A stretch of 35,215 nt of DNA from Deltaproteobacteria bacterium (GTDB lineage Bacteria; Desulfobacterota; Desulfobacteria; Desulfobacterales; C00003060). The stretch lies in contig DAOUZN010000003.1 of assembly GCA_030665585.1 (NCBI GenBank), forward strand, positions 1 through 35,215, read 5' to 3'. The translations under genes and the position numbers were made by a program. How positions within the stretch are numbered: position 1 is the stretch's first letter; each line of letters opens with the position of its first letter. This document shows, piece after piece, positions 13,441 through 35,215 of this stretch. Below the pieces are notes generated by a model. The model searched no databases. It had not been told where the DNA came from and saw nothing but the letters and a program-made list of their open reading frames with translations.

Positions 13441-13483
13441 GTTAGTGGTCCGTGAGACATGACAAAAAAAAGGAGGTTTTTTC

Positions 13484-14056: not shown

Positions 14057-14117
14057 GGGGAACCGTGAAGGCGAATGGGGGATCAATCTGCAAGTGACGA
14101 ATGACGAATAAGGAAGC

Positions 14118-15140: not shown

Positions 15141-15164
15141 AAAGTTGTTTGAGAGGAATGAGAC

Positions 15165-16381: not shown

Positions 16382-16418
16382 TCCCTCATCCCTGACCACC
16401 GTCTACTGACGAGTGACC

Positions 16419-17222: not shown

Positions 17223-17234
17223 TCTGGGCGAGCT

Positions 17235-18209: not shown

Positions 18210-18466
18210 TGCCGTGCGTGCCTCGTCTGTGGGTTGGGTCCTTTGTCAAGAATCTTTGCCGCAGACCGAACCTCGAAACAAGCCCCGAAACGACAACGAT
18301 TTCACGATACTGTTGCAGGTTCCAAGTTGGCTGCTCCCAGGGTTGGACGCACCCGAATGAATGCATTGAGACCTTTGAAAAACTGCTTCGCACTTATTCC
18401 TACGAACTTTTTGACCCATCTGCGGGCAGCCTTGGGCTCTTTACGGCCGGGCGAATCTACGGTTAG

Positions 18467-19606: not shown

Positions 19607-19618
19607 TGGGTCTTTCAT

Positions 19619-20296
19619 ATGGTTGGAGAATCCAATGCAAGGTCCGGGTTGAAGTGGTGGCTGGCCGGCTGGCTGGGGAAAGGTCTGGTAGACTTGATTT
19701 GCGGCACGATGCGGATCCGCGTTGTCGACTTCAACAAGGCCCGGGCGGAGATCGAGTCAAAGAGATTTATCCTAGCCTTCTGGCATTCGAGGATTGTGGC
19801 GATCAGCTACCTTTACCAGGGCTGGGGGGCCGCAATACTGGTCAGCAGCTCTGAGGATGGGGAGATCATGGCACAGATCCTTCAACGCCAAGGTCACGAG
19901 ACCATCCGCGGATCGACGTCACGTCACGGCGTTCGCGCCATGGCCAAGCTTATTAAGACGCTCAATGAAACGATTCGTCCTGGAGGCGTCGTCCCGGACG
20001 GTCCAAGAGGACCGCGGTTCAGGGTTCAGCCCGGCGTCATCACCCTGGCTCAGAAGACGGGCTGTCCTGTTGTGCCGATCAGCTACAGCGCCAAGCGGAT
20101 CAAGATCTTTGCAAGCTGGGATCGGTTTATTCTACCGTATCCTTTCACCGAGGGTCGCCTCATCTACGGCAGGCCCATATCCATGCCTTCTAAACTTGAT
20201 GTGGAGGAACAAGAGGTTTATCGCGTCAGGCTGGAAGAAGAACTTAATCGCATTACAAGGAAAGTAGACCATTACTATGGTCACGAGATAGCGTAG
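19619..20296 (+). CDS. DUF374 lysophospholipid-acyltransferase-family protein (LpxJ-like late lipid A acyltransferase)
   Basis: AFWH, SSSEDGE, IRGSTSRHG, PDGPRGP, SWDRF.LP.PF; located between lpxB and msbA. Confidence 0.85.
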   Translation: MVGESNARSGLKWWLAGWLGKGLVDLICGTMRIRVVDFNKARAEIESKRFILAFWHSRIVAISYLYQGWGAAILVSSSEDGEIMAQILQRQGHETIRGSTSRHGVRAMAKLIKTLNETIRPGGVVPDGPRGPRFRVQPGVITLAQKTGCPVVPISYSAKRIKIFASWDRFILPYPFTEGRLIYGRPISMPSKLDVEEQEVYRVRLEEELNRITRKVDHYYGHEIA

Positions 20297-20310
20297 CGTT
20301 ACGGTCAAAA

Positions 20311-20348
20311 ATCCCCTGTCCGCCTGAGGCGGACTGCGGGGGATCTTC
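20311..20348. repeat. Short REP-like hairpin
   Basis: GTCCGCC-TGA-GGCGGAC stem, flanked by ATCCCC and CTGCGGGGGATCTTC, which resembles the reverse complement of the 10.7-kb element. Confidence 0.55.
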
Positions 20349-20379
20349 AGTCCTTTCCTATTTTTCGTGTGGTGAGGTT

Positions 20380-22164
20380 GTGAGTGACAGAGACAACAGA
20401 GATTTAACGAAGATATGCCACCGGATTTTGGCACTTGTCAAGTCACAGTGGCCTCGCCTCGTCCTGGCCATGTTCTGTATGATGCTGGTAGCAGCGCTTA
20501 TTGCTGCCACGGCCTATCTTGTGAAACCCGTTTTGGACGAGATCTTTGTCAATCGAGACAAGAGGATGCTGCAGCTCCTTCCCCTTGCCATCATCATCAT
20601 CTATGTCCTCAGAGGGGGTGCGTATTTTGGCCAGGCCTATTTGATGAATTATGTGGGGCGTTGTATTATCAAGCGACTCCGTGACGACCTTTACAGTCAC
20701 ATTCAGATGTTGCCCCTGTCCTTTTTCCAGAAACATGAGACCGGTGTCTTGATGGCAAGGATCATGAACGACGTTAACCTTGTGAAGGGGATGGTCTCTG
20801 ATGCGGTCACGGGGGTGTTAAAAGATTTCTTTTCAATCCTAGGCCTCCTGTTTGTCATCTTTTACCGAGACTGGGTCCTGGCCTTGATTGCGATCACTGT
20901 TTTACCAGTGGCTGTGATCCCCATCGTAAAGTTTGGCAGGCGAATGCGGAAGTTGAGCACCCGGTGCCAGGAGGCCATGGCGGATATGAGCTTCCTCCTT
21001 CATGAAACCTTTACAGGCACTAGAATCGTAAAAGCCTTTGGCATGGAAGCCCATGAAAACCGCCGTTTTTTTGAAAAAACCGCTCGTTTGTTTAAATACG
21101 AAATCAAGGCCGTCATCGTCAGGGCCATGTCTTCGCCTGTCATGGAACTGCTGGGCGGCATTGGCATTACGTTTATTATTTGGTACGGCGGACACAAGGT
21201 CATTACAGGCACATCGACACCAGGGACTTTCTTTTCCTTTATGGCGGCCCTGATCATGTTGTATGAGCCGATCAAAAGGATCAGCAGACTGAATAATGTC
21301 ATTCAGGAAGGGCTGGCTGCCGCTGTTCGAATCTATGATATCCTCGACACCGATTCGGACATCCAGGAGTCGCTGGACGCTGTCGCGCTTAAGGGCGGGC
21401 GGCATTCCGTGGTTTTTCGCAATGTTTCTTTCAAGTACGAGGACCAGATGGTCCTCAGAAACATCAACCTTAGGGTTAAGAACGGCGAAATCGTTGCCTT
21501 GGTGGGCATGAGCGGCGGGGGAAAGACCACCTTGGTGAATTTGATTCCTCGCTTTTATGATGTCACCGAAGGGGCGATCCTCATTGACGGGCAGGATGTC
21601 CGGGATGTGAGCATTGCCTCGCTTCGCAGCCACATCGGGATCGTGACCCAAGACCCCATGCTTTTCAATGATACCATTCAAAACAATATTGCCTATGGAA
21701 GACTTGATGCCTCCGAGTCGGACATCGTTGCAGCTGCTAAGGCCGCCTATGCTTATGATTTCATACAGAATTTTCCGGACCGGTTCGGTACTGTGGTGGG
21801 CGAAAAGGGCGTGAGGCTGTCCGGGGGGGAAAAGCAGCGCATCTGCATTGCCCGTGCGCTCTTGAAGAATGCACCTATCTTGATCCTGGATGAAGCGACT
21901 TCTTCACTAGATACTGAGTCGGAGTTAGCCGTTCAGGGTGCCCTCGAAAACCTCATGAAGGGTCGCACGACCCTTATCATCGCCCACAGGCTCTCCACGA
22001 TTCGACACGCTGATCGGATCATCGTGATTGTGAACGGAAGGATTGTAGAAGAGGGCAAACACGAAGAACTCTTGGCTCTCCATGGCGAGTATTTTAAACT
22101 TCACGACATGCAATTTGAAAACAACAACGATCAAAAGGCACATGAAAGTCAACAGCACGGTTAA
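20380..22164 (+). CDS. msbA: Lipid A/LPS flippase ABC transporter MsbA
   Basis: TMD plus NBD; GMSGGGKTT, LIPRFYD, LSGGEKQR, ILDEATSSLD, IAHRLST; lipid A gene context. Confidence 0.92.
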   Translation: MSDRDNRDLTKICHRILALVKSQWPRLVLAMFCMMLVAALIAATAYLVKPVLDEIFVNRDKRMLQLLPLAIIIIYVLRGGAYFGQAYLMNYVGRCIIKRLRDDLYSHIQMLPLSFFQKHETGVLMARIMNDVNLVKGMVSDAVTGVLKDFFSILGLLFVIFYRDWVLALIAITVLPVAVIPIVKFGRRMRKLSTRCQEAMADMSFLLHETFTGTRIVKAFGMEAHENRRFFEKTARLFKYEIKAVIVRAMSSPVMELLGGIGITFIIWYGGHKVITGTSTPGTFFSFMAALIMLYEPIKRISRLNNVIQEGLAAAVRIYDILDTDSDIQESLDAVALKGGRHSVVFRNVSFKYEDQMVLRNINLRVKNGEIVALVGMSGGGKTTLVNLIPRFYDVTEGAILIDGQDVRDVSIASLRSHIGIVTQDPMLFNDTIQNNIAYGRLDASESDIVAAAKAAYAYDFIQNFPDRFGTVVGEKGVRLSGGEKQRICIARALLKNAPILILDEATSSLDTESELAVQGALENLMKGRTTLIIAHRLSTIRHADRIIVIVNGRIVEEGKHEELLALHGEYFKLHDMQFENNNDQKAHESQQHG

Positions 22165-23317
22165 CAGATATATTTTTGGGGAGATGATACCGCCCTTTGT
22201 CATCAGCTTGATCTTGTTCACTTTCATTTTTTTGATGGCCAGGATACTCCGTATTACCGATCTCATCGTGAACTATGGCGTCAGTCTGTCGTCCGTCCTC
22301 CTCCTGTTGATTTACGCCACGCCTTCTTTCCTGATTTTTGTTCTTCCGATGTCCATCATGATGGGTGTGCTCCTGGGTTTCCTGAGGTTGTCTCACGACA
22401 ATGAGGTCATTGCCTTGAAAGCAGGTGGGTTTAGTGTCTACTGGCTTCTTCCTCCTGTTTTTGTTTTTTGTCTCATCGGGTGTTTGTTGACCGGCTTTGT
22501 CTCTATATACGGCTCTCCGCGGGGAAGACTTTCTTCCAAGGCCTTACTGCTTAAAACCGCAACATCGAACATTGACATAGGGTTAAAAGAGAGGACGTTC
22601 ATCGACCGTTTTAGTGGTGTTATGCTTTATGTGAGTCAAATCGATACGCAGGACAAGACCCTCATCGATGTCTTCATTGAAGACCGGCAAACGCCGGGAA
22701 TGGTAAACACGGTTATTGCGCCCAGGGGGAAGTTTCTCTTCGATGCGGAAAGCCTTACCTTCCAGTTGTCACTGTTCAATGGGATGATCAATGAAGTCGA
22801 TCAGAAGAATGGGACCGTACATTCTATTAGCTTCGACACCTATGATTTTAACCTTAACCTCGCCCGGGTTCTGTCTGCAAGAGAGCAAGGCCAAAAGGGC
22901 AGAAAAGAAATGAGTTTGGTAGAATTACGCCAGAGTCTAGAGGCCGCTAGCAGGAAAGATGCAAAATACTACTTGACCTTGATGGAATATCACAAGAAAT
23001 TTTCCATCCCCTTTGCGTGTTTTGTCCTTGGACTGGTCGCAGTTCCCTTGGGGATTCAATCAAGATCTGCAAAGAGGTCTTTTGGCATGGTTCTGGGTTT
23101 GCTCTTCTTTCTCATTTATTATGTGTTGATGTCCGTGGGCATGGTTCTTGGTGAGACCGGGGCGTGTCCGCCCGTTATCGGCATGTGGGGCCCCAACTTG
23201 GTGATGGGCACGATTGGTATGTACCTTCTCCTCTCGAGCGCAAAGGAGCGCCCCCTAAAGGCCATTTCACTATTGCCAAGGATATTCATGTCACCTAAAT
23301 CAGCGTGCATAGAGTAA
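22142..23317 (+). CDS. lptF: LPS export ABC permease LptF
   Basis: NRYIFGE, RLSHDNEVIALKAGG, EYHKKFSIPF, WGPN; ATG 22142 overlaps the msbA end. Confidence 0.9.
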   Translation: MKVNSTVNRYIFGEMIPPFVISLILFTFIFLMARILRITDLIVNYGVSLSSVLLLLIYATPSFLIFVLPMSIMMGVLLGFLRLSHDNEVIALKAGGFSVYWLLPPVFVFCLIGCLLTGFVSIYGSPRGRLSSKALLLKTATSNIDIGLKERTFIDRFSGVMLYVSQIDTQDKTLIDVFIEDRQTPGMVNTVIAPRGKFLFDAESLTFQLSLFNGMINEVDQKNGTVHSISFDTYDFNLNLARVLSAREQGQKGRKEMSLVELRQSLEAASRKDAKYYLTLMEYHKKFSIPFACFVLGLVAVPLGIQSRSAKRSFGMVLGLLFFLIYYVLMSVGMVLGETGACPPVIGMWGPNLVMGTIGMYLLLSSAKERPLKAISLLPRIFMSPKSACIE

Positions 23318-23468
23318 TTTTCATCTGCAAGGAGCCGCTTGTCCGTCCACGCGCTTTTCCACTCCGAGACATGACATATTCCAGGATGGTTTATATTGAG
23401 GCCGGTTTCACCCGTATGGACTGCATGGCCCGGTGCGAGCAGTTTTCGCTCCAACATGATCGGACAGG

Positions 23469-24566
23469 ATGGGGATTGCAAAAGTGAGTCTTTCGACCAT
23501 CCACAGGTACTTGACCAAGGAATTGCTGAAGTACTTCTGTTTTGTACTCATGGCTGTTGTGGGCATCTATCTTGCCGTCGATTTCTTTGAAAAGGTAGAC
23601 GATTTCTTGGACGCCGAGGTGCCCCTCTCGAAGCTCGTTGTCTTTTTCGCACTCAGGATTCCTTTCATAGTGGCCCAGGTAACGCCAGTGGGCGTTTTAC
23701 TGGCTGTGCTCATCGTCTTTGGCCTCATGGTCCGGAATAACGAGATAGTGGCCTTGAAAAGCGGCGGAGTGAGGATCTCTTCCCTGTTCAAGCCTGTCCT
23801 TGTGACGGGATTAACATTTAGTGTCCTTGTTTTTTTCTTTAGCGAGGTGTTGGTCCCGATGACCATGGTGAGGGCAAATAAAATATGGCAAAGCGACGTG
23901 AGGAAAGGATCCGCGGTGGCTTCCAGGAAGAAGAATATCTGGATCAAAGGCAACCACGCCATTTTCCATATTACCTATTTCAATCCCTCGGATAAAACCA
24001 TATTCGGCGTGACGCTGAATTATTTTGACGGGCGCTTCCGCTTAGTCGGACGGGTGGATGCTGAAAAGGGTATTTACACGGGAGATAGATGGCGCTTATT
24101 CAATGTGGTTGAACAGGATCTGTTGACAGAGGATGGAAGCTACAAGGTATCGTGTCTAGAAGAAATCTCTGTAAAGCTCGAGTTTGTGCCAGAAGATCTG
24201 CTTACGGTTGTCAAGAAGCCTGAAGAAATGAGTTACAGCGAACTGGCTGCCTATATACAGAAGGTTGAAGAAGAAGGATACGATGCGACAAGCTATCGGG
24301 TTGACCTCATGGCCAAAATATCTTTTCCATTTGTTTGTGTGATCATGAGCTTGGTGGGGACTAGTTTAGCCTTCTGGAGAAAAAAGAAAGAAGGGTTCGC
24401 TGGGAGTATTGTTTACGGTATTGGGATGGCATTTCTCTATTGGACCCTTCACAGCTTCTGTTTGTCCCTGGGATATGGCGCGATGTTGCCACCTATCATA
24501 GCAGCATGGCTAACCAATGTGCTATTTGTATGTTTCGGCGTCGTCACATTACTCAAGGCCAACTGA
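23469..24566 (+). CDS. lptG: LPS export ABC permease LptG
   Basis: IHRYLTKE, NNEIVALKSGG, PEEMSYSEL, KISFPF, AAWLTN; start may be GTG at 23484. Confidence 0.9.
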   Translation: MGIAKVSLSTIHRYLTKELLKYFCFVLMAVVGIYLAVDFFEKVDDFLDAEVPLSKLVVFFALRIPFIVAQVTPVGVLLAVLIVFGLMVRNNEIVALKSGGVRISSLFKPVLVTGLTFSVLVFFFSEVLVPMTMVRANKIWQSDVRKGSAVASRKKNIWIKGNHAIFHITYFNPSDKTIFGVTLNYFDGRFRLVGRVDAEKGIYTGDRWRLFNVVEQDLLTEDGSYKVSCLEEISVKLEFVPEDLLTVVKKPEEMSYSELAAYIQKVEEEGYDATSYRVDLMAKISFPFVCVIMSLVGTSLAFWRKKKEGFAGSIVYGIGMAFLYWTLHSFCLSLGYGAMLPPIIAAWLTNVLFVCFGVVTLLKAN

Positions 24567-24633
24567 GCGAACCTTAAGGCTTCGCCCCCATTGGAGCCAT
24601 GTCGTTTATGCAACATTAGGGTAGAGTCAGGTT

Positions 24634-25914
24634 GTGATTATTTTGTACAATATCTTGTTTTCGATAACCATCGTCTTGGCCCTTCCCTTCATTTTTGTGA
24701 AGGTACTGACCTCTGAGAAGAGGCAAAAAACGGTTATCCGGCGCTTGCGCCCGGAAGCTTGCATCAGGGCCTCTGGGGCAAGACCCGTCTGGATTCACGC
24801 CCTTTCCGTGGGTGAGGTTCTGGCTTCCTCGTCCCTAATAAAACAGATAAAGAAGATTTGCGCCCGGCGGCCAGTCGTACTTTCAGTTTCGACGCTTACT
24901 GGTCATGAGGTTGCCAAGAGGCTACTTAAAAGCGATGTGGATGCTATCTTCTTTTTTCCCTATGACTTGGTCTGGTCGGTTAGAAAGACCACTGGATCTG
25001 TCGACCCTGGCATATTCATCCTGGTGGAGTCAGATATCTGGCCAAATTTCACATATGAGATGAAACGACGGCAGATTCCCTTCATCCTCGTTAACGGGAG
25101 GGTCTCACCCAGGTCTTTTTCGGGATACATGCGGCTTTCTTTTTTTATGAAACGTGTGTTTTTTAATATCTCAAGCATTTGCGCTCAGACTGAGATGGAT
25201 GCCAGACGGTTTGTTGCCCTTGGTGCGGCGCCGGACAGGGTTCACGTGACCGGAAATATCAAGTTTGATCAGCCACTGATCTCTGTCTCAGAAGAGGAAG
25301 TCGGGGAGCTAAGAGCGTCCGTGAGGATTAGCCCAACGGCTCGGGTATTTGTGGCCGGAAGCACCCATGAGGGAGAAGAGGCGATTCTTTTGCGTTGCTT
25401 TGAAGCCCTGAAAAGGGACTACCCGGACCTCGTCTTGGTGGTGGTGCCGCGGGACCCCAGACGGGCTGGGAGCGTCCAAGGGATGTTTAAGCAGGCTGGA
25501 CTTTTTGCCCCTTTGAGAACAGAATTGGGCAAGATGGATGTCGGCTTTGCACCAGAAGCCATCATTGTCGATACGATCGGAGAGCTGAGAAGACTTTATG
25601 CTATAGCCCATGTCGTCTTTGTGGGGAAAAGTCTGATCAATCTCGGCGGGCAGAATCCTCTGGAGCCTGCGGCTTTGAAAAAACCCATCGTCTTTGGGCC
25701 GCATATGTTCAATTTTGGACTCATTGCCGAACGTCTTGTCCGACAGGGGGGGGCTTTGCAGGTGGCAAACGAGGAGGAACTGCTGCGAGCGGTCAAAAAC
25801 CTGTTGGCTGACCCCAAGCGTTCCAACGCCATGGGGAAGAAGGCATATAACGTGTTTCATATGAACCGAGGGGCGCTTGAGAAGACCCTCGCTGTGATTG
25901 AGGGCTTTCTATAA
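24634..25914 (+). CDS. waaA: Kdo transferase
   Basis: WIHALSVGE, FPYD, ESDIWPN, TGNIKFD, AGSTHEGEE, DTIGEL, GGQNPLEPA, GPHMFNF. Confidence 0.96.
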   Translation: MIILYNILFSITIVLALPFIFVKVLTSEKRQKTVIRRLRPEACIRASGARPVWIHALSVGEVLASSSLIKQIKKICARRPVVLSVSTLTGHEVAKRLLKSDVDAIFFFPYDLVWSVRKTTGSVDPGIFILVESDIWPNFTYEMKRRQIPFILVNGRVSPRSFSGYMRLSFFMKRVFFNISSICAQTEMDARRFVALGAAPDRVHVTGNIKFDQPLISVSEEEVGELRASVRISPTARVFVAGSTHEGEEAILLRCFEALKRDYPDLVLVVVPRDPRRAGSVQGMFKQAGLFAPLRTELGKMDVGFAPEAIIVDTIGELRRLYAIAHVVFVGKSLINLGGQNPLEPAALKKPIVFGPHMFNFGLIAERLVRQGGALQVANEEELLRAVKNLLADPKRSNAMGKKAYNVFHMNRGALEKTLAVIEGFL

Positions 25915-25916
25915 CC

Positions 25917-27062
25917 ATGCATTCTCTCCGACCCAAGATAGAGCGGGTCATGATTGAAGGAGACGCGGCTTCTCCAGCCTTTTCATCAGCTTTTGAATGG
26001 ATGCTTTACGCCTGTTCCCAGCTGTACCAACTAGCGGTAAGCGTTAGGATTTATCTATATGAGCGTGAGATTTTTAGCCAGAACAGCCTGCCGTGCAAGG
26101 TGGTATCCATAGGCAATATAACCGTGGGGGGCACTGGGAAGACCCCTATGGTGTCCTATGTGGCAAATCTGTTGAGTGGGCTTGGTCTCAAGGTGGCGGT
26201 TATCAGCCGGGGATACGGGGGCCATGCCCAACGGTCGGGAGGCATTGTTTCAGACGGCAAGACCACATTGATGGGACCCCGGGCCTCAGGGGACGAGCCT
26301 CAGCTTCTAGCTTCAAGGCTCAAGGGAATCCCTTTGCTTGTTGGAAAGGACCGCTATCTGGCCGGCAAACAGGCCATGAGCAGGTTCGGGGCATCCGTCC
26401 TGGTCCTTGATGATGGTTTTCAGCACCTGGCCTTGAAAAGGGATGTGGACCTATTGCTTATTGACAGCGCCCGGCCTTTTGGAAACGGTCATTGCGTGCC
26501 AAGGGGGCCACTGCGAGAACCTGTGAGCGGGATAAAGAGGGCCAGTGCTTTCGTCCTGACCCGATGGACAGGGGACAGCCCGTTGAACCGACAGCGCGAT
26601 GTACTCGAGGCCCATGCCCCGGGACGTCCGATTTTCAAATGTATGCATGTGCCTGAGACGCTGTTCGTGGCCGGACAAGAAAAGCCGATCGACTTAGCCA
26701 CCTTGAAGGGGCAAAGGCTTTTTGCATTTTCGGGCATTGCGAGAAACGAGGCCTTTCGTGAAACCGTTTCCAGCCTTGGAGGGGACGTCATTGGCTTCCT
26801 TGAGTTTTCAGACCATCATCGGTATACGAAGGATGATGTGGAATCCATTTGGAAAGGCGCCACGGACAAGGGCGTCGACGGCATCATTACAACGGAGAAG
26901 GATCTGGTCAATTTGGGCACCGACACGCCATCCATGCCGCTACTGTTGGTGCTGGGAATTCGCATCTCCTTTGGGGATGATGCAGAAGCGTTTGCGAGCT
27001 ACTTGAAGACCAAAATGATGGGGAACCCTCATATCGGGCGAGCCCTTCGCAAAAAGGGGTAA
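25917..27062 (+). CDS. lpxK: Tetraacyldisaccharide 4'-kinase
   Basis: SIGNITVGGTGKTP, SRGYG, GDEP, LDDGFQH, PRGPLRE, DHHRY, TTEKD. Confidence 0.96.
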   Translation: MHSLRPKIERVMIEGDAASPAFSSAFEWMLYACSQLYQLAVSVRIYLYEREIFSQNSLPCKVVSIGNITVGGTGKTPMVSYVANLLSGLGLKVAVISRGYGGHAQRSGGIVSDGKTTLMGPRASGDEPQLLASRLKGIPLLVGKDRYLAGKQAMSRFGASVLVLDDGFQHLALKRDVDLLLIDSARPFGNGHCVPRGPLREPVSGIKRASAFVLTRWTGDSPLNRQRDVLEAHAPGRPIFKCMHVPETLFVAGQEKPIDLATLKGQRLFAFSGIARNEAFRETVSSLGGDVIGFLEFSDHHRYTKDDVESIWKGATDKGVDGIITTEKDLVNLGTDTPSMPLLLVLGIRISFGDDAEAFASYLKTKMMGNPHIGRALRKKG

Positions 27063-27327: not shown

Positions 27328-28269
27328 TTGAAGGCATTGGTGACAGGGGCAGCAGGGTTTATCGGGTCCCATCTGAGTGAATACCTGATTGAAAAGGGAT
27401 TGAGGGTCGTGGGTATCGATAGTTTTATGGATTACTATCCCAGATCTATAAAGGAAACAAATATTGCCGGGATGAGCAGCGATGAGCATTTTGAGTTCAT
27501 AGAAGGGAGTCTTCTAGACGTCGACTTGTCAAAGCTTTTAGATGGCGTTGATGTTGTGTTTCATCAAGCAGCTCAAGCCGGCGTGCGGGCGAGCTGGGGC
27601 CAGAGCTTCAAGATCTATACCGACAACAATATCCTTGCCACGCAGATGCTCCTTGAGGCGTGCAAAGAAAGCCCGGTCGAAAAATTCGTTTATGCCTCCT
27701 CCTCTTCCGTTTACGGAGATACAAGAGATCTGCCCATGAGGGAATCGTCCCTGCCGTATCCAGTCTCACCATACGGTGTTTCAAAGTTGGCTGCCGAACA
27801 CCTTTGCTGTCTATACTACAGAAATTTTGGGATACCAACGGTGTCACTCCGATATTTTACGGTCTATGGCGCCAGGCAGCGGCCGGATATGGCCTTCCAT
27901 CGTTTCCTGAGATGGGCGTTGGAGGGCAGCGCCCTTGAGGTATATGGGGATGGCCGTCAGAGCAGGGACTTCACTCATGTGGACGACATCGTGGAAGCCA
28001 ACTGGCTGGCCTTGGAAAAAGGTTTGCCTGGAGAAGTCTTCAATGTTGGAGGAGGCTCTCGGGTCACCTTAAACGAGGTCATCGAGATGATGAAAGCGAT
28101 GGTGGACCAGGAGCTTGAGGTACATTATGAGGGTGTACAAAAAGGGGACGTGCGACACACCTTCGCGGACATAACCAAGGCCGAGAACAAACTGGGCTAC
28201 AAGCCGAAGATGTCCATTCAGGATGGGCTCCAGAGGGAATATGAGTGGATTCAGAGTCTGGTCAAATAG
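27328..28269 (+). CDS. NAD-dependent nucleotide-sugar epimerase (extended SDR; UDP-glucuronate/UDP-glucose 4-epimerase-like)
   Basis: TGAAGFIG, HQAAQAGVR, ASSSSVYG, YGVSK, RYFTVYG.RQRPDMA, RDFT, GDV.HT.AD; TTG 27328 with G-rich RBS (the ORF-track start is inside the repeat). Confidence 0.9.
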   Translation: MKALVTGAAGFIGSHLSEYLIEKGLRVVGIDSFMDYYPRSIKETNIAGMSSDEHFEFIEGSLLDVDLSKLLDGVDVVFHQAAQAGVRASWGQSFKIYTDNNILATQMLLEACKESPVEKFVYASSSSVYGDTRDLPMRESSLPYPVSPYGVSKLAAEHLCCLYYRNFGIPTVSLRYFTVYGARQRPDMAFHRFLRWALEGSALEVYGDGRQSRDFTHVDDIVEANWLALEKGLPGEVFNVGGGSRVTLNEVIEMMKAMVDQELEVHYEGVQKGDVRHTFADITKAENKLGYKPKMSIQDGLQREYEWIQSLVK

Positions 28270-28366
28270 CTATGTGGTTGACTAGCTGCGTCGTCATTTG
28301 TGAATGGGCAATAGAGAATTTTGACCGCTCAACCAGTTAACGGTTTCTACGAAAGGAGGTCCAATC

Positions 28367-28540
28367 ATGACAATCAGCCAGGAGTTATTGGATATCTTGG
28401 CCTGTCCCAAGTGCAAAGGGGACATCTACCTGAATGAGACAAAAGATGGGCTTATCTGTGACAAGTGCAGACTCCTTTACGAAATCAAGGATGACATTCC
28501 CGTCATGCTCATCGATGAAGCAAAGCCGATAGAAAGTTGA
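28367..28540 (+). CDS. ycaR: Trm112/YcaR-family zinc-ribbon protein (57 aa), absent from the ORF track
   Basis: Manual translation MTISQELLDILACPKCKGDIYLNETKDGLICDKCRLLYEIKDDIPVMLIDEAKPIES; LACP.CK and Y.I.D.IPVML.DEA motifs; RBS AAAGGAGGT. Confidence 0.93.
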   Translation: MTISQELLDILACPKCKGDIYLNETKDGLICDKCRLLYEIKDDIPVMLIDEAKPIES

Positions 28541-28660
28541 GAGGGGCTGGCTGGAAAGCCCAAAACAAAATGGCTTGCGGGATGCTCGGTGTGGAAGGTT
28601 TTCTACAACGGTCCTGAATGCCTGGAAGGCCTGTGATTTTCAGAAAGGCATGGCATTTTG

Positions 28661-29269
28661 TCAGCTTAGATAACGCTTTTTGAGGCGGTTAAATTCACTT
28701 AACTCTTGGGTTGAGATTTCAAGGGTGTCTGAAGTTTCTTTCTCTTCTTTCGGCAGAGGCTCTTCTTGTTGCCCATCCTTTTCCATCGGCTCACCCTGGA
28801 TAAGTTTTTCAGGGGTCAAGGGCTGAAAATATACGGCTGGCTCGTCAAGGCCGTCGACTTGTAAGACGGCGTACTTGATCAGGTGGATTTTGGACTCCGT
28901 CCCCAAGACATGCATCAGGTTGCAGATTGAGGCGGAAAAGTCATGAGAGAAAAGATACATATCCAACCCTATCTTTCCATTGGCAAACATTTCACCCACC
29001 GTGACAAATTGCTTCAGCCAGACATAGTAAGACATTGACGAAATAATAAACTTTTCAGTCTCCTCTGCATCATTTAGCCTGGCAACGGTTAAGTGCGTTT
29101 TCCCCTGGTTGACAAATAATAAATCCGACGAACCAAACTGTGGAGAGGCAATGTTGTCTCCGAGAACGACGTCTTGACGGGACCCGGAATGCAGCAAAAA
29201 CTTCTTGGCGGCATCCATCAATTCCTCTTGCGGAACCGCCGTGGAAACAGCGTCATTGATTATTTTCAC
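28661..29269 (-). CDS. Hypothetical protein, probable degenerate NucS-like PD-(D/E)XK fold with acidic C-terminal tail
   Basis: GTG start with RBS AAAGGAG; overlaps the upstream gene by 17 nt. G.SDLLFV...LTV...Y..W...LF..DFS...I.LIKY pattern resembles the NucS C-terminal domain (fold is inference). Confidence 0.7.
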   Translation of the reverse strand: MKIINDAVSTAVPQEELMDAAKKFLLHSGSRQDVVLGDNIASPQFGSSDLLFVNQGKTHLTVARLNDAEETEKFIISSMSYYVWLKQFVTVGEMFANGKIGLDMYLFSHDFSASICNLMHVLGTESKIHLIKYAVLQVDGLDEPAVYFQPLTPEKLIQGEPMEKDGQQEEPLPKEEKETSDTLEISTQELSEFNRLKKRYLS

Positions 29270-30161
29270 CGTTGCCAGCTCCTTTCAGCAAAGTGTGATT
29301 TTTTTCGATCAGGCTGTCTGCCAGTTTCTTGATGGACTCAGAAAGGCGTGAATGTCCCGACTCCTGGAGCAAAGGTGTCTGTGTTAGGGTTGCCAGGGAC
29401 GGATGCGTCCCCTTGGGAATAGATCCCATGAAATGAATCTTGCACGAGAGAAACTTCTCGGCCATTTCCGACATGACCCTACACGCTGCCTCGGCCGGAG
29501 AGGAAACGTCTTCTTCCATGATCACGAGACCGACATCCGGACAAGACACATCTCGGGCGATTTGCTTGATGAGTTCATATGACTTCAAAAGGTCTTCTGA
29601 ACCCACGGTGGTGGGAACCACAAAAAAAGGATTGATAGCAGCGGTCACCTTCCCCGGGCCGAAGACGTCAGGAGATACGTTCATGATAAGAAAATCATTT
29701 GTACTCCTTAGTCTGTCCAAAATGGTCAAGAAATCTGCGGAATTAAGGTCTTTCTCCCAAAAGACGGCATTGATATTCTTGTAACCACCAAAGAGAAAGA
29801 AGGTGTTTGGGAGTCTGGCCGTCGTCTCAATGAGTCCTACGGAAAAGTCTCTTCTTGCCAATTCGAGGGCAAGATTGCAGGCAAGGAAGGACTTTTGCCC
29901 CGAAAGCCTCTTTGAAGCAGAAAAAAGGAGGCACAAATTCTCTTGGATTGGGGCCGTGCGGCCTGCGTTTTGGTGTGTTTCGGTTCGTGGAAGATCAACA
30001 GGCAATGGCGTGATGGCTTTACCATCAGCCTGGGCGACCTGCTTTCCGATGGCCTTTTCTCCTAGATTTTCGGGCCTTTCGCCGGACAGGAAGAAATGAG
30101 ACACTTCTTCCAGTGTCCTGCCCCTTTTTTCTCTATCTTCCATCGACGAGCAAGTAGACAT
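29253..30161 (-). CDS. Degenerate FlhG/FleN/MinD-like P-loop protein with N-terminal extension
   Basis: KSFLACNLALELA, LPN..FLFG, DFLIMN, VVPTT....L..SY.LIK, AEKFL.....GSIP and S..SESIKKLA follow the FlhG/MinD pattern, but Walker A and B are eroded; TAATG overlap with the parA stop. Confidence 0.75.
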   Translation of the reverse strand: MSTCSSMEDREKRGRTLEEVSHFFLSGERPENLGEKAIGKQVAQADGKAITPLPVDLPRTETHQNAGRTAPIQENLCLLFSASKRLSGQKSFLACNLALELARRDFSVGLIETTARLPNTFFLFGGYKNINAVFWEKDLNSADFLTILDRLRSTNDFLIMNVSPDVFGPGKVTAAINPFFVVPTTVGSEDLLKSYELIKQIARDVSCPDVGLVIMEEDVSSPAEAACRVMSEMAEKFLSCKIHFMGSIPKGTHPSLATLTQTPLLQESGHSRLSESIKKLADSLIEKNHTLLKGAGNGENNQ

Positions 30162-31240
30162 TACACGTTGATAACAGAATTTGTGCTCCCCAAGAGATTG
30201 TCCGCTCTTTTCTTGTTGCTCGGATCAGACACCCAACGGCCGTCAACCAGGTATTTGTATTGATAAAGGCCGGGGCTGAGGCGGATGGCTTTCTGCCACA
30301 CCGGTCTGCCATGGGAGTGAGTCAAATCAAGGCTCTCCGGTACCCAGTTATTAAAATCGCCAGCGATCTGCACCCCGGCGTCCTCGGGTGCCTCGATAAT
30401 GAACGCCACTTCTTTTTCCATGGGCTCTTTCACTTTTTCCTTGGCTTCCACAAAGGACTTCAGGGCGAAACCCTTGGCCTTCATCTTGGCTTCTTCCCTC
30501 AGGATCTCTTTCATCAACTGCTGATAATCCAGGAAGGCAGCGCAGTGTTGGTCGTATTCAGCTATGGGTTTCCCAGCGCTGGCAGCTTCTCTCAGGCGGG
30601 TGCATGTATTGATTTCGGTCTCAAAGCAGTTCCTGGGAAATCTGGCCCTGAGGGTCTCTACGACCCGGTTGCTGAAATTGGTCCTGCGGTCCATGTTGGT
30701 GGCCAGAATCCTGAAAGTGAGTTCGTGTCCAGCCTTGTCTTGAATGATCTGAATGGTTTCCAGAAGCTTTCCCAATCCGTTGAGAGAAAAGGAACTGGAA
30801 TCGACCGGAATGATGACCTCATCACATGCTATCAGCGCATTAAAGGTTAAGAGCCCCACGCTGGGAGGGCAGTCAATGATGAGGTAGTCGTAGTTGTCTT
30901 CAATCTCTTTAAGGCCCTGGGCAAGTGTAAATTCTCTCTCTGGGACGCCGGCCATGACTTGTTCAAAGGCGCTCAAGACGACGTTGCTGAAAACAGCATC
31001 AAGATTCTTTTCTAGGGTCTTTATGGCTTCAATTATTTGTATCTTACCTGACAAGACCTCATAGATGCTCTCTTCTATTTGATCAGGTTTCACGCCAAGA
31101 CCCAGCCCTGCATGCCCTTGGGGGTCTAGGTCGATCAGGAGCACCTTTCTGCCCTTTCCTGCTAGACAACTGGCTAGGTTTACCGCCGTGGTTGTCTTGC
31201 CGCACCCGCCTTTTTGATTAACGAGAGCCATTTTCCTCAT
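30161..31240 (-). CDS. Soj/ParA-family ATPase fused to a C-terminal CBM48 (AMPK-beta-like glycogen-binding domain)
   Basis: NQKGGCGKTT, IDLDPQG, IDCPPS, DRRTN, RLREA; C-terminal AGDFNNW, GLYQYKYLVDGRW, DPSN, LGSTNS; ATG 31240 with RBS GGAGG. Confidence 0.92.
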   Translation of the reverse strand: MRKMALVNQKGGCGKTTTAVNLASCLAGKGRKVLLIDLDPQGHAGLGLGVKPDQIEESIYEVLSGKIQIIEAIKTLEKNLDAVFSNVVLSAFEQVMAGVPEREFTLAQGLKEIEDNYDYLIIDCPPSVGLLTFNALIACDEVIIPVDSSSFSLNGLGKLLETIQIIQDKAGHELTFRILATNMDRRTNFSNRVVETLRARFPRNCFETEINTCTRLREAASAGKPIAEYDQHCAAFLDYQQLMKEILREEAKMKAKGFALKSFVEAKEKVKEPMEKEVAFIIEAPEDAGVQIAGDFNNWVPESLDLTHSHGRPVWQKAIRLSPGLYQYKYLVDGRWVSDPSNKKRADNLLGSTNSVINV

Positions 31241-31442
31241 GACGCTTTCCTCCCTTGTCATTGCTGGGCAGGAGAAAAAACCCCACATCTCCCCCCGGAT
31301 GGAGATTAGTTATCTAATATATTTGGGCACCTCCTCCTCGCGTATGATGGCTCAAACCGTTATGCGGCCCAGGTGACTGCCTACACCTCCCGATTGCCGT
31401 CTAAGCCCCTTGGGTTACAAGGATTGCAGCGAGAAAACGCTC

Positions 31443-31652
31443 TTATTTCGCTGTTCCATGGTTGTTGTTCAGCGATAGACAATCCCTTTTCCACAGGCAC
31501 GCTTGCTCCCCACAAGAGTCTACCCGCGTGGTGCCGAAGCAGTCGATATTGTTTTCTTTCCTTTGAATTGCCTGGATCATGTCCATCTTTTTCATTCTGA
31601 ACGTGTTAACGTCCATCTCTTTGGCCATTCTTTGAATCTCCTGAAATCTCAT
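31443..31652 (-). CDS. Small SAP/Rho-N-like helix-extension-helix protein with Cys motif (69 aa)
   Basis: MRFQEIQRMAKEMDV...MKKMDMIQAIQ..E.N.DCF......C....CLW..DC; RBS AAGGAGG. Confidence 0.85.
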   Translation of the reverse strand: MRFQEIQRMAKEMDVNTFRMKKMDMIQAIQRKENNIDCFGTTRVDSCGEQACLWKRDCLSLNNNHGTAK

Positions 31653-31817
31653 TTTGCCCTCCTTCACGTTGTAGGGTCATCGGCTATGGTATAACGCAAA
31701 AGTACAGGCCCCGATCCTCATAGGCCACTGACTTTTGTCGACATTTTCCCATTCAGCGACGAATCGAACAACAACCTCCTTTGTCTATATATTGCACCGA
31801 CTATTCTTTAGGCCACA

Positions 31818-31835
31818 ACATATGGCATATGTCAA
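31818..31835 (-). promoter_or_regulatory. Palindromic putative operator overlapping a TTGACA -35 box
   Basis: ACATATG-G-CATATGT (31818-31832); TGTCAA at 31830-31835 reads TTGACA on the - strand; -10 box is unconvincing. Confidence 0.35.
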
Positions 31836-31913
31836 GGGAAAAATGTAAAAAAACACCGGGAAGGGATCGCCTTGACGCCTTGCTTCGAACAAAGGCAAAA
31901 GCCTTGGAAAGGA

Positions 31914-34900
31914 TTATTGGGAAGGCTGTCTAGGTCCCAGGTATGTCTTCAGGTGGCGGGCTGTGTGAGAGCCATTCGGGTGGGCGATGAGTTCCACGGG
32001 TGAACCTGCTGCCACCACCCGCCCTCCCTCATCTCCCCCTTCCGGGCCAAGGTCAATGATGTGATCGGCCTCTTTGATGATCTCCATGTTGTGTTCAATG
32101 ACCGCTACGGTATTTCCTTCATCCGCCAAGGCCTGCAGCACCTTCAACAGCCTCTGCACATCGGCCAAGTGCAACCCTGTGGTCGGTTCATCCAGGATGT
32201 AAAGGGTGCGGCCCCTAGAGGGCTTGGCCAGCTCTTCTGCCAACTTGACGCGTTGGGCCTCACCCCCGGAGAGCGTGGGGCTGGGTTGTCCCAGGTGCAG
32301 ATACCCCAGGCCAATGTCACAAACAAACTGGACGGGCCGGCGAATCGATGGCACGGCAGCAAAAAAGCCAGCAGCCTCCTCAAAGGTGAGTTCCAGGACG
32401 TCAGAGATGTTTTGCCCTTTGTAGGTGACGGCCAGGGTCTCCTGATTGAATCGTCGGCCCCTGCAAACCTCACAGTGAATATACACGTCAGGGAGAAAAC
32501 TCATGCCCACTTTTAGACTGCCGTGTCCCTTGCACGCCTCACATCGGCCCCCTGCCACGTTGAATGAAAACCGGCCGGCCTTGTATCCTCGAGCCCTGGC
32601 CTCCGGGGTCATGGCAAAGCGCGTCCGTATGTCAGACAGAAATCCCACATAGGAGGCTGGCACAGAGCGAGGGGTGCGGCCGATGGGTTTGTGATCCACC
32701 TCGAGTACCCGGTCCAGGGACTCCCAACCCTTGATCGCGTCACAGCGGCCGGCATCACGCTGTTGCTTTAAGAGCCGGTTGCGGACGCCTTTGTACAGGG
32801 TTTCTTTAAGAAGCGTGGATTTGCCGGAACCTGACACGCCGGTGACGCAGATCAAGGTACCCAGGGGGAAATCAACATCGATCCCTTTCAGGTTGTGTTC
32901 CACCGCCCCTTGAACCGTGATGAAGAGGCCGTCCTTGGGAGACCTGAGGCGGGAGGTGATGTGGTGGGGATGTCCGTCAAAACAAGTGCCTGTGACAGAT
33001 GCGGAGACTTTCTTTAAATCGGCCAACCGACCACTGGCAACCACACGCCCACCTTCCCGGCCGGCTCCGGGGCCCAGATCGATGATGTAATCAGCGGCTC
33101 GGATCGCCTCTTCATCGTGCTCCACCACCAGGATCGAGTTTCCCCGCGCCTTGAGCTCACCCAGAGCCTCCAGGAGCAAGCGATGGTCCTTGGCGTGAAG
33201 GCCGATCGTGGGCTCATCCAGGATGTAGCAGACCCCTGCCAGATTCGATCCAAGCTGGGCTGCGAGCCGGACACGCTGGGCTTCCCCACCAGACAGGGTG
33301 TCACCGCTCCGACTGAGGGCGAGATAGGACAATCCGAGCCGATTGAGCAGGGAGAGACGTGTCCGGATTTCATCCAAAATCGGCTCGGCGACAGGGGATT
33401 GCCGTGGGCTGAAAGCGAATTGCTTGAGCGTTTCTTGCGTCTGATGAACCGGCTGTTGCACCAGGTCCCAGATGGAATAGCCCTCGATTTTTACGGCCAG
33501 GGCCTCCCCTTTCAAGCGACTTCCATGGCACTCTGGACACGTCTTGTGTCCGTTTCTGCCGGAAGCCTCTACCTCACCCAGTCCATCGCACACAGGACAG
33601 GCCCCATGTTTGCTGTTAAAGGAAAAGAGGCGAGGGTCCGAGGCCTTCAATCCTATGCCGCAGGCAGGACAGATGCCTTGCAGACTAAAAACCTCTTCAG
33701 TCCCCTTGGGGTCTACGATCAGCAGGCTGCCATGGCCTTCTTTCAAGGCGCGGCCCACCACATCGTCAAGGTCTGGTGTGGGAAACCGTCCCACCAGAAG
33801 GTCAATGGTGTGCTCATGGTAACGGCTCAGGGCCATGTTCTTCTTGAGCGTTGCCAGTCGGCCATCAATTCGGGCTTTTTGATAACCCCTGCGCAGAGAC
33901 TGGGCCAGGACGTCCTTATGGAAACCTTTTCGTCCGGCCACCTTTGGGGCCAGGACAAGGGCGTGCTTTCTCCCGTAGCGATGCCGAATCTGATCCACGA
34001 TCTGATCCTGCGTCTGGACTGTCAATTGGCGGTCGCAGCCGATGCAGTGCTGAGAGCCAAGCTTGCTGTAAAGAAGTCTGAGGAAATGATAGATCTCGGT
34101 CAGCGTTGCCACGGTGGACCGGCGACTGGCATGGCTGATGCGCTGTTCGATGGCCACGGTGGGCGGAAGGCCGGACACAACGTCCACGTCCGGCCGTTCA
34201 AGGATCTTGACATACTGTCTCACGTATGGGGCAAGGCTTTCCAGATAACGTCGCTGACCCTCTGCAAAGAGAATGTCAAAGGCCAGGGTCGATTTGCCTG
34301 AGCCAGACACACCCGTGAGCACCACAAGCTGGTTACGGGGGATGGAAAGACTCAGGTTCTTGAGGTTGTGTTCCCGGGCCCCCCTGATGGCGATGGCCTG
34401 TGAGAAACCCTCAGCTGGTTCGGAAATGCTTGGGGGTGACGCCTTGCCGGGCCTTAACCGGCCCGGGTCACTCAGATACGCTGCGAGAAACCGGCCGGTA
34501 TGAGATTGGCGATGCCTGGCCACCTCTTCTGGTGGGCCGGCCACCACGACCCGGCCTCCATCATCCCCACCCTCGGGCCCCAGGTCGATCACCCAGTCTG
34601 CTGTCTTGACCACATCCATGTTGTGCTCAATCAAGAGCACGGAATTTCCCGCGGCAACGAGTCTGTCGAGACAGGCCAGGAGTTTTTCTATATCGTCAAA
34701 ATGGAGTCCCGTGGTGGGTTCATCAAAGATAAAGAGTCGCGCGATGTGATCCCCGGCCTTGAGATATCGAGACAGCTTGAGCCGTTGAGCCTCCCCTCCT
34801 GACAGGGTATTGATGGGCTGGCCAAGCCGCATGTAGCCGAGGCCGACATCAGCCATGGGCTGAAGGGCCCTTTGCACCTTGGGTTGATCGTCAAAAAAGT

Positions 34901-35215
34901 CGATGGCGTGATCTACAGTCATGGAAAGGATGTCGTATATGGTCTGCCCCTTGTAGGTCACCTCCAGGATCTCTTTCTTGTAGCGCTTACCATCGCATTC
35001 GGGGCAGGTGATGAAGACATCGGAAAGAAACTGCATCTCCACCTTTTCAAACCCTTCCCCCCGGCATGTTTCGCACCGGCCTCCTGCCACGTTAAAGGAA
35101 AAATGGCCCGGCCCAAAACCCCTTGCCCGGGCATCCGCGGTGTCGGCCAGCAGTCGGCGGATGGGATCTGCGGCCTTGGTGTAGGTTAAAGGATTGGCCC
35201 TGGGTGTGCGGCCGA
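31914..35215 (-). CDS. uvrA: Excinuclease ABC subunit A, tandem-duplicated long form; 5' part lies outside the window
   Basis: Frame is open to the window edge (GRTPRANPLTY...FSFNVAGG). Contains three LSGGEAQR/DEPT sets, two GVSGSGKS motifs, GAREHNLKN and Zn fingers. Confidence 0.95.
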   Translation of the reverse strand, partial: GRTPRANPLTYTKAADPIRRLLADTADARARGFGPGHFSFNVAGGRCETCRGEGFEKVEMQFLSDVFITCPECDGKRYKKEILEVTYKGQTIYDILSMTVDHAIDFFDDQPKVQRALQPMADVGLGYMRLGQPINTLSGGEAQRLKLSRYLKAGDHIARLFIFDEPTTGLHFDDIEKLLACLDRLVAAGNSVLLIEHNMDVVKTADWVIDLGPEGGDDGGRVVVAGPPEEVARHRQSHTGRFLAAYLSDPGRLRPGKASPPSISEPAEGFSQAIAIRGAREHNLKNLSLSIPRNQLVVLTGVSGSGKSTLAFDILFAEGQRRYLESLAPYVRQYVKILERPDVDVVSGLPPTVAIEQRISHASRRSTVATLTEIYHFLRLLYSKLGSQHCIGCDRQLTVQTQDQIVDQIRHRYGRKHALVLAPKVAGRKGFHKDVLAQSLRRGYQKARIDGRLATLKKNMALSRYHEHTIDLLVGRFPTPDLDDVVGRALKEGHGSLLIVDPKGTEEVFSLQGICPACGIGLKASDPRLFSFNSKHGACPVCDGLGEVEASGRNGHKTCPECHGSRLKGEALAVKIEGYSIWDLVQQPVHQTQETLKQFAFSPRQSPVAEPILDEIRTRLSLLNRLGLSYLALSRSGDTLSGGEAQRVRLAAQLGSNLAGVCYILDEPTIGLHAKDHRLLLEALGELKARGNSILVVEHDEEAIRAADYIIDLGPGAGREGGRVVASGRLADLKKVSASVTGTCFDGHPHHITSRLRSPKDGLFITVQGAVEHNLKGIDVDFPLGTLICVTGVSGSGKSTLLKETLYKGVRNRLLKQQRDAGRCDAIKGWESLDRVLEVDHKPIGRTPRSVPASYVGFLSDIRTRFAMTPEARARGYKAGRFSFNVAGGRCEACKGHGSLKVGMSFLPDVYIHCEVCRGRRFNQETLAVTYKGQNISDVLELTFEEAAGFFAAVPSIRRPVQFVCDIGLGYLHLGQPSPTLSGGEAQRVKLAEELAKPSRGRTLYILDEPTTGLHLADVQRLLKVLQALADEGNTVAVIEHNMEIIKEADHIIDLGPEGGDEGGRVVAAGSPVELIAHPNGSHTARHLKTYLGPRQPSQ

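Follow-up and report, generated by a model that had tools for sequence, protein, structure and literature searches.

ATPases of the ParA/MinD class act on a varied set of cargos: chromosomes, plasmids, carboxysomes, chemoreceptor arrays, flagella and the divisome are named in passages of a survey that assign cargo specificity to the partner protein (PMC10241942). The same passages describe these partners as generally using a charged N-terminus for the ATPase and the remainder of the chain for the cargo. For the partner ParB, parts of two reports give details of this segment. [quoted passage not shown] The patch that binds DNA non-specifically comprises, in sections of PMC6393308, K199, K227, K230 and K247 of H. 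pylori Soj and R182, R194, R208 and R211 of Thermus Soj. A full-text literature search, with subscription-only papers outside it, retrieved nothing on a ParA that has a carbohydrate-binding module or on glycogen positioning that depends on ParA, and the words “glycogen” and “carbohydrate” do not occur in the 2023 survey of ParA/MinD systems (PMC10241942). Here we describe a gene of this kind in a stretch of 35,215 nucleotides (nt), referred to below as the window, that forms positions 1 to 35,215 of contig DAOUZN010000003.1 in the assembly GCA_030665585.1 of a Deltaproteobacteria bacterium (Desulfobacterales), an uncultured organism of marine sediment.

The minus-strand open reading frame (ORF) 30161..31240 of the window encodes a 359-amino acid (aa) product in which a Soj-type ParA ATPase is joined by a charged linker to a CBM48 of the AMPK-beta type. 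Two further genes, named here ORF2 and ORF3, follow it on the same strand. The conserved module, through its architecture, residue conservation and synteny and, in some lineages, its neighbourhood of glycogen enzymes, suggests without proving it that glycogen stores are actively tethered or distributed. We lean, by a modest preference, towards a ParA-type system of three genes by which granules of glycogen (alpha-glucan) are tethered to the nucleoid or positioned on it. Family statistics refer throughout to 64 homologous fusion proteins with a mean column identity of 48%. The features of the fusion gene are the following:

30161..31240, minus strand: ParA-CBM48 fusion gene, 359 aa, stop codon TAA at 30161-30163
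31249..31254, minus strand: Shine-Dalgarno sequence GGGAGG, 8 nt before the ATG at 31240
30491..31240, minus strand: ParA/Soj ATPase domain, residues 1-250 (AAA_31; Foldseek matches to Soj/ParA structures)
31190..31213, minus strand: deviant Walker A KGGCGKTT, residues 10-17, signature Lys K10 (K10, G11, G12, G14, K15 and T17 each 64/64)
30677..30691, minus strand: DRRTN, residues 184-188, in which R186 (64/64) corresponds to Thermus Soj R182
30584..30601, minus strand: TRLREA, residues 214-219, in which R215 corresponds to Thermus Soj R211 and H. pylori Soj K230
30416..30490, minus strand: charged flexible linker of about 25 aa, residues 251-275 (predicted local distance difference test, pLDDT, below 50 at 258-273)
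30164..30415, minus strand: predicted CBM48 / AMPK-beta-type glycogen-binding module, residues 276-359
30344..30361, minus strand: GDFNNW, residues 294-299, in which W299 (64/64) corresponds to AMPK beta1 W100
30251..30265, minus strand: YQYKY, residues 326-330, in which K329 (63/64) corresponds to K126
30233..30247, minus strand: VDGRW, residues 332-336, in which W336 (64/64) corresponds to W133
30179..30193, minus strand: LGSTN, residues 350-354, in which L350 corresponds to L146 (varies in the family) and N354 to N150 (invariant)

The open frame extends upstream to 31288 (30161..31288, minus strand). The ATG at 31240 is the most likely initiation codon because GGGAGG is found 8 nt upstream and because M1-R2 are invariant in the 64 homologues. 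The original prediction, made from the sequence alone, had recognised a ParA-CBM48 fusion in this ORF, and every motif that it quoted is found where it was placed. The domain profiles agree with it. Pfam AAA_31 matches residues 1-174 (E 3.1e-56, 190.5 bits for a cut-off of 27), AMPK1_CBM matches residues 290-359 (E 2.5e-10, 40.9 bits for a cut-off of 26.8) and CBM_48 matches residues 276-339 (25.8 bits for a cut-off of 22.4). The ATPase part contains, besides the deviant Walker A, DLDPQG (residues 37-42) and DCPPS (residues 123-127), as had been proposed, and the key residues of these motifs are kept throughout the family: D37, D39 and D123, which include the catalytic or water-activating Asp (DxDPQ after strand 2) and the Walker B Asp, are invariant (64/64).

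The AlphaFold2 model of the fusion, calculated with the 64 homologues as input, has a mean pLDDT of 87. It consists of a Rossmann-like ATPase domain, a long C-terminal helix that runs into the low-confidence linker (258-273), and an all-beta C-terminal domain of eight strands (residues 276-358, pLDDT about 91-93). The segment of ~83 aa (30164-30412) that had been singled out as a sugar-binding module coincides with this predicted domain, and the charged linker expected between the two parts is present at about residues 250-275, with low confidence in the model. The comparison with Soj structures was also favourable: Foldseek places the ATPase domain on the chromosomal ParA/Soj structures 9a6n, 8ray, 6iub and 2bek with template modelling (TM) scores, relative to the target, of 0.89-0.94 and root-mean-square deviations (rmsd) of 1.3-1.9 Å. 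When the whole fusion model was used as query all Foldseek matches were to the ParA domain and none to the CBM. In the PDB, phmmer matches the ATPase to 8ray_B (E 7e-52).

Residues 289-359 align by phmmer to PDB sequences of the glycogen-binding domains of human AMPK beta1 (4zhx_B, 91-155) and AMPK beta2 (2lu3, E 1.2e-8). The equivalences counted along the alignment are W299=W100, K329=K126, W336=W133, L350=L146 and N354=N150, all five being present in the window protein as originally predicted; the L146 position is not conserved in the family. W299, W336 and N354 are found in 64 out of 64 sequences and K329 in 63. The same four residues are kept in 27 fetched loci, down to 37% identity. Judged from these alignments, four of the five glucan-contact equivalents are under strong purifying selection in the family.

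The basic residues of the ATPase were compared with those of two Soj proteins, the Thermus protein being represented by 1wcv, whose chain numbering agrees with that of PMC6393308. The original prediction had matched DRRTN and TRLREA to the Soj segments that bind DNA. A DNA-binding surface is supported in part. Three of the four Thermus arginines are kept (R182, R194 and R211, equivalent to R186, R198 and R215), and the fourth, R208, is replaced by T212. Of the four H. pylori lysines one, K230, is matched by R215, and K199, K227 and K247 correspond to N191, T212 and H232. Within the family Arg or Lys is found at position 186 as Arg in 64/64 proteins, at 198 in 56/64, at 215 in 51/64 and at 217 in 64/64. 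Non-specific DNA binding by the fusion is therefore plausible, with three of the four Thermus arginines but only one of the four H. pylori lysines matched.

The fusion gene is widespread. The C-terminal 105 aa used as query retrieved 70 database proteins, 66 of which carry both AAA_31 and AMPK1_CBM; the fusion is therefore not a product of chance or of faulty assembly. Full-length matches are found in 11 of the 25 genomes drawn from the genus, that of the window among them, and in none of the 16 drawn from the order's other families. In a sample of 401 genomes of the phylum, 20 matches in open frames of 357-484 aa were selected and their loci fetched; 19 of these hold a full-length fusion with 37-68% identity, under 10 family labels, and the sample has at least 20 genomes with the fusion when that of the window is counted. 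A pattern scan of species-representative genomes with a 9-row alignment found the fusion in 71 of 80 loci, as a single alignment in 54 and as one open frame with a long linker of 45-148 aa in 17. Across the family the linker measures 10-154 aa, and this variable length fits a flexible tether. The titles given by depositors to records with the fusion name Desulfobacterales, Syntrophobacterales and “Deltaproteobacteria” and, beyond the phylum of the window, Acidobacteria, Gemmatimonadota, Omnitrophota, Planctomycetota (Pirellulales, Phycisphaerae) and Gammaproteobacteria (Sulfuricaulis). One further record (L076; CP070739.1), entitled “Methanomassiliicoccales archaeon ... chromosome”, codes for a fusion 65% identical to the one of the window; its label or binning looks doubtful, and sibling records of the series are titled Deltaproteobacteria. 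The 3-kb stretch of the module is found in part in 20 listed sequencing runs from 14 studies, labelled as marine or other sediment, marine and seawater metagenomes, and two DNA runs cover all its 30 bins.

The two genes downstream of the fusion have the following features:

29253..30161, minus strand: ORF2, 302 aa, ParB-like N-terminal peptide and MinD/ParA-like domain lacking a Walker A; its ATG overlaps the fusion stop codon by 1 nt
30084..30128, minus strand: conserved N-terminal peptide of ORF2, residues 12-26 (R15, H22, F24 and S26 invariant, n=43)
28661..29269, minus strand: ORF3, 202 aa, predicted restriction-endonuclease-like core and C-terminal helix; overlaps the end of ORF2 by 17 nt
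28667..28711, minus strand: conserved C-terminal helix of ORF3, residues 187-201 (F193 and L196 nearly invariant), preceded by a disordered spacer

Judging by this layout the fusion gene is translationally coupled to ORF2. Database relatives of the ORF2 protein number 61, and for none of them is a Pfam domain precomputed. Its conservation among 43 aligned sequences is strongest at the N-terminus, where L17, E18, E19, S21 and L25 reach at least 90% in addition to the invariant residues. The peptide is laid out as basic residues, the invariant R15, and then L17, V20, F23, F24 and L25, an arrangement that resembles the ParA-binding peptide of ParB. ORF2 was considered as a ParB/Spo0J and rejected: the Pfam and NCBIfam scans gave no ParB match, neither to the ParB/Srx CTPase nor to a parS-binding helix-turn-helix. 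The remainder of the protein is called MinD/ParA-like because the homologue at locus L036, to which the ORF2 hidden Markov model (HMM) is linked with E 9.7e-29, passes the Pfam cut-offs of ParA, AAA_31 and CbiA, and because MinD/ParA clusters (0.93-0.94) are among the neighbours of ORF2 in the ESM Atlas. The CbiA match of ORF2 itself is sub-threshold (16.5 bits in Pfam), and the alignment of 43 sequences lacks the glycine-rich loop and signature Lys at the expected place of the Walker A.

Peptide-bearing ORFs accompany the fusion closely. They were searched with a regular expression in 27 loci (8 of the genus and 19 of the phylum sample), requiring an ORF start from -60 to +220 nt relative to the end of the fusion and the peptide within the first 70 residues. 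Such an ORF lies directly downstream of the fusion in 23 of the 27 loci, the exceptions being L019, L031, L034 and L044, and among the other ORFs of these loci the peptide was found in 1 of 1379; the contrast is descriptive, the expression having been composed after the sequences were seen. Many ORF3 homologues, 250-270 aa long, bear the ORF2-type peptide themselves; the loci concerned (L014, L015, L018) have no MinD-like body. In the wider scan the peptide was found with 34 of the 54 single-alignment fusions, including loci labelled Acidobacteria, Gemmatimonadota, Omnitrophota and PVC group, and with none of the Planctomycetota or Gammaproteobacteria loci tested among these 54. The third genes of L032, L036, L038, L040 and L042 are distant homologues of ORF3 (hhalign probability 96.3%, E 1.5e-9, 181 columns). 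From the pattern of the peptide and these distant homologues it follows that the module is made of ParA-CBM48, then a peptide-bearing partner, and often then ORF3. In a further set of loci (L028:4103-4996 on the minus strand, L051, L054, L056-L058, L060, L065, L067-L070) the peptide precedes another kind of body, 218-451 aa long, whose start looks helix-turn-helix-like by eye in the L028-type loci. The activator peptide seems to be shuffled between partner bodies.

ORF3 belongs to a small family, with 42 cluster representatives among 1.84 billion proteins. Its model (pLDDT 84.7) was compared to known structures with VIA-align, which returned NucS (2vld_B, Z 9.0, rmsd 3.1 over 107 residues), 2okf_B (Z 8.7) and 1y88_A (Z 8.5). 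Most of the 50 listed matches are, by their titles, nucleases of the restriction-endonuclease-like class, and Z ranges from 8.5 to 9.4 for PD-(D/E)xK nucleases, values of 8-9 being near the background stated for the tool. Foldseek against the PDB gave nothing at E <= 0.001 (best E 0.013). In the alignment of 35 homologues only G46 and W84 are invariant and no (D/E)xK was seen by eye. The model of ORF3 may be said to resemble restriction-endonuclease-like folds moderately.

According to the original prediction the presence of a cargo domain on the ATPase reverses the usual arrangement of ParA and adaptor. A transfer of cargo binding onto the ATPase is plausible. The claimed reversal is to be corrected, because the fusion gene is coupled to ORF2, with its ParB-like peptide, and to the conserved ORF3: the adaptor arrangement is altered rather than abolished. 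By their sequences, an adaptor or activator still exists in the fusion module.

A link with glycogen metabolism was searched in the gene content of the genomes and in the vicinity of the module. Two GlgA and one GlgB in the genome of the window exceed the cut-off. The share of genomes with a GlgA above cut-off is 26 of 29 for the other genomes with the fusion and 256 of 401 for the phylum sample, a comparison between related genomes that are not independent. The neighbourhood was scanned with Pfam at 10 distant loci, within the stretch fetched. At L040 a GH57 gene, a 1441-aa gene combining Glycogen_syn, DUF3417 and Phosphorylase, and the three-gene module follow each other on one strand. At L036 the module is followed on the opposite strand by GH57 with BE_C, DUF4912, GH57 and a GT4/5 glycosyltransferase, and tblastn placed a small CBM48-like segment in the interval that separates the module from these genes. 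An alpha-amylase gene and GlgB adjoin the module at L028, and a standalone CBM48 gene is located directly downstream of it at L031. The large gene of L040 (L040:8067-12389, minus strand, in genome G082) is a single 1441-aa ORF that fuses a eukaryote-type Glycogen_syn (PF05693), DUF3417 and a glycogen Phosphorylase domain. The genome of the window also has two small standalone CBM48 ORFs, both on the plus strand: one (G000:C6:25-288) adjoins a glgA from which it diverges, and the other (G000:C135:530-874) is on a contig that also holds an ordinary ParA.

We infer DNA binding, glucan binding, peptide stimulation of the ATPase and positioning, which may be combined in the following way. The ATP-bound ParA domain would form a sandwich dimer and bind nucleoid DNA non-specifically via R186, R198, R215 and R217. 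Through its two CBM48 modules the dimer would grip alpha-1,4-glucan chains at the granule surface, and many such weak links would tether the granule to the nucleoid. Docking of the ORF2 N-terminal peptide at the dimer edge would stimulate ATP hydrolysis and release the ATPase. Repeated cycles would spread the granules over the nucleoid, so that both daughter cells inherit them and no clumping occurs. The Walker-A-less body of ORF2 and the nuclease-fold ORF3 would probably localise or regulate the activator. A bolder formulation, a ParABS-like and centromere-free partition machine for polysaccharide, self-contained and driven by energy, in which the ATPase itself holds glycogen by its CBM48 and a Walker-A-dead ParA/MinD paralogue with a ParB-type peptide replaces ParB, is one that we put forward more tentatively.

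Several observations weigh against a glycogen-positioning system. If the cargo link is independent of the nucleotide state, the classical diffusion-ratchet would need modification; the module may act as a dynamic tether and not as a motor that spaces granules. The basic patch, as read from the alignment, is thinner in the window protein than in the family consensus: Arg or Lys is present at position 191 in 52/64 relatives and at position 231 in 52/64, and the window protein lacks both, while position 212 (Thermus R208, H. pylori K227) is basic in 0/64 family members. Position 350, the L146 equivalent, is occupied in the family by Y, F, R and L in 33, 11, 8 and 7 of the 64 sequences. The profile comparison of ORF2 with the ParA family by hhalign was not significant (probability 1.6%, E 0.031). 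Support for the docking of the peptide on the ParA dimer is weak as well. The complex predicted from two copies of ParA(1-255), ATP, Mg and ORF2(1-45) scored 0.43 (runs at 0.43, 0.45 and 0.20) and the best control 0.01; the runs shared at least 67% of their contacts and the partner pLDDT was at least 46. Of 157 solved complexes 116 attain the mark set for such predictions, and of 215 mismatched pairs 2 do; in the range of 0.60 and below, just 18 of the 157 solved complexes attain it, as do both of the passing mismatches. The pass may moreover stem from resemblance to solved structures, because similar complexes of ParA with ParB peptides are among these. Finally, the Pfam scan of the window contains no glycogen gene, and none was found in the fetched stretch of six of the ten distant loci (L029, L030, L032, L034, L038, L045). 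Three of the 29 fusion genomes (G280, G082, G220), one of them 100% complete, have no GlgA above cut-off. All three have GH57, G280 and G220 have GlgB, and G082 is the genome of L040, where the eukaryote-type Glycogen_syn gene adjoins the module.

ORF2 and ORF3 could point to a different cargo, because in the canonical systems it is the partner that defines the cargo. Glycogen would then be an anchor or a regulatory input, with the CBM48 serving to park the ATPase on glycogen or as a sensor, in the manner of AMPK beta, and the real cargo would be the ligand of ORF2 and ORF3, such as a protein complex or a DNA site. The bodies of both proteins are conserved, ORF3 having a nuclease-like and possibly DNA-binding fold, and the known ParA/MinD partner with a charged N-terminus is a cargo adaptor, as passages of PMC10241942 describe; the pairing of the peptide with another body, helix-turn-helix-like by eye, in L028-type loci also points in this direction. 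We nevertheless consider it unlikely, since the ATPase has retained most of its DNA-binding arginines, in agreement with the nucleoid as matrix, since the neighbours at L040, L036 and L028 are glycogen enzymes with no other obvious cargo, and since ORF3 was not found beside the fusion in many lineages. A re-use of the CBM48-like domain for protein-protein contacts or for another glycan, with a cargo unrelated to glycogen, would account for the variable L146 equivalent and for the majority of loci that have no glycogen genes nearby, and conserved aromatic residues can be structural. The four main glucan-contact equivalents are, on the other side, invariant or nearly so across 64 sequences that have diverged to 48% mean column identity, both Pfam models of glycogen modules are above cut-off, and the neighbourhood of the module repeatedly has standalone CBM48 genes and glycogen enzymes, which makes such a re-use rather improbable.

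The nearest solved relatives of the ATPase are chromosomal ParA/Soj proteins, and the window's own assembly, 83% complete, yielded no ParB_N. One might thus see in the fusion a variant ParA for chromosome or plasmid partition with an incidental CBM48. Against it, ParB_N is present in 5/5 near-complete genomes with the fusion, and in two of them (G009, G022) ParB stands beside an ordinary ParA ~37% identical to the query; the fusion module is for this reason taken as an extra system. The partner lacks a ParB domain, the fusion scores below the partition equivalogs of NCBIfam (119.6 bits for a cut-off of 180 with ParA_partition, NF041546, and 99.7 for 348 with RepA), and the neighbours of the module on the chromosome are a lipid A gene cluster and UvrA, all of which leaves partition very improbable. 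Least probable of all is a defence or mobile-element module composed of a nuclease-fold protein and P-loop proteins: the likeness of ORF3 to PD-(D/E)xK nucleases invites it, but PADLOC gave no match for ORF2 or ORF3 and only weak P-loop matches for the ATPase, the nuclease motif was not seen in the ORF3 alignment, and the synteny with housekeeping genes is stable across the genus. The tethering or positioning of glycogen granules on the nucleoid is for us still the preferred reading.

In the window the module is surrounded by a cluster of lipid A/lipopolysaccharide genes, an epimerase gene and a long UvrA-like gene. The first is a complete-looking outer-membrane/lipid A cluster (10789-27062, plus strand) with BamA, Skp, LpxD, LpxA, LpxI, LpxB, an MsbA-like ABC protein, LptF/G, KdtA and LpxK. 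The UvrA-like gene (31914-35213, minus strand) codes for at least 1099 aa with internally repeated ABC and UvrA segments, is open at the end of the window, and is syntenic with the module in 6/8 loci of the genus (L013-L015, L017-L019). A small ORF precedes the fusion gene:

31443..31667, minus strand: 74-aa Cys-rich ORF upstream of the fusion, weak Rho_N match (20.6 bits, below cut-off)

Four related loci (L002, L013, L016 and L027) retain this ORF immediately before the fusion gene (69-89% identity), and its membership of the module is uncertain. A second ParA of the genome (G000:C40:7011-8066, plus strand, 351 aa, 45% identical to the ATPase part of the fusion) was considered as a paralogue with a swapped cargo domain and discarded, its tail of ~75 aa, in the place of a CBM48, looking acidic and of low complexity, with no domain. 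This gene lies just downstream of ORFs that resemble genes of the methylmalonyl-CoA-mutase type by eye.

A scan of 28200-32000 for promoters and terminators gave no informative sites inside the module, with 7 promoter-like sequences for 2.9 expected and 3 terminator-like sequences for 5.0 expected. One metatranscriptome library (X20) contains two contigs from a relative, 90-95% alike, of 187 nt (29107-29293) and 551 nt (29973-30517). The longer one crosses the junction between ParA-CBM48 and ORF2, a two-gene contig being no proof of a single transcript. These contigs are not proof of expression of the module, as the library may contain DNA and they come from a relative. Elsewhere the stretch is without RNA coverage, from which nothing follows.

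If the proposed function is correct a polysaccharide storage granule joins the list of ParA/MinD cargos, with a different wiring that combines cargo binding in cis and a pseudo-ATPase activator. It would be the first active system for the positioning of glycogen granules in any bacterium, present under record titles from at least six phyla, and the organisation and inheritance of bacterial glycogen would become directly testable.

The module is, on balance and with some caution, best placed as a variant of the ParA/MinD positioning systems. It shares with ParABS (M. xanthus ParA 8RAY, H. pylori Soj 6IUB/8JMJ, Thermus thermophilus Soj 1WCV/2BEK) the fold, the deviant Walker A and equivalents of most of the Thermus Soj arginines for non-specific DNA binding, as well as a partner with a short N-terminal peptide of Arg plus hydrophobic residues. 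It differs from ParABS by the C-terminal CBM48 on the ATPase, by a partner body that is Walker-A-less and MinD/ParA-like and has no ParB/Srx CTPase or parS-binding domain, by its third gene, with a nuclease-like fold, and by the separate canonical ParAB of near-complete relatives. ORF2 and its homologues are MinD/ParA-like (Pfam for the L036 protein, ESM Atlas), which relates them to FlhG/MinD-type partners and pseudo-ATPases; unlike the former, ORF2 has no glycine-rich Walker A with signature Lys, and the protein of the window is below the Pfam cut-offs and not significant in hhalign. The CBM48 part is of the same sequence type as the AMPK beta glycogen-binding domain (1Z0M/1Z0N, 2F15, 4ZHX; E 1e-8 to 1e-7) and has the same contact residues, but it is carried by a P-loop ATPase instead of a kinase scaffold, and its L146 position varies in the family. 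McdA/McdB and other ParA/MinD systems for protein cargos, as passages of PMC10241942 present them, offer the closest parallel to the proposed function, the spacing of a non-DNA body on the nucleoid with a partner that acts via its N-terminus, even though McdA structures match the fusion far more weakly than ParA/Soj (E 2e-16 compared to 7e-52). In McdA/McdB-type systems, according to the same passages, the cargo link is in the partner only, whereas in the fusion module the putative cargo-binding module is on the ATPase and the proposed cargo is a polysaccharide.

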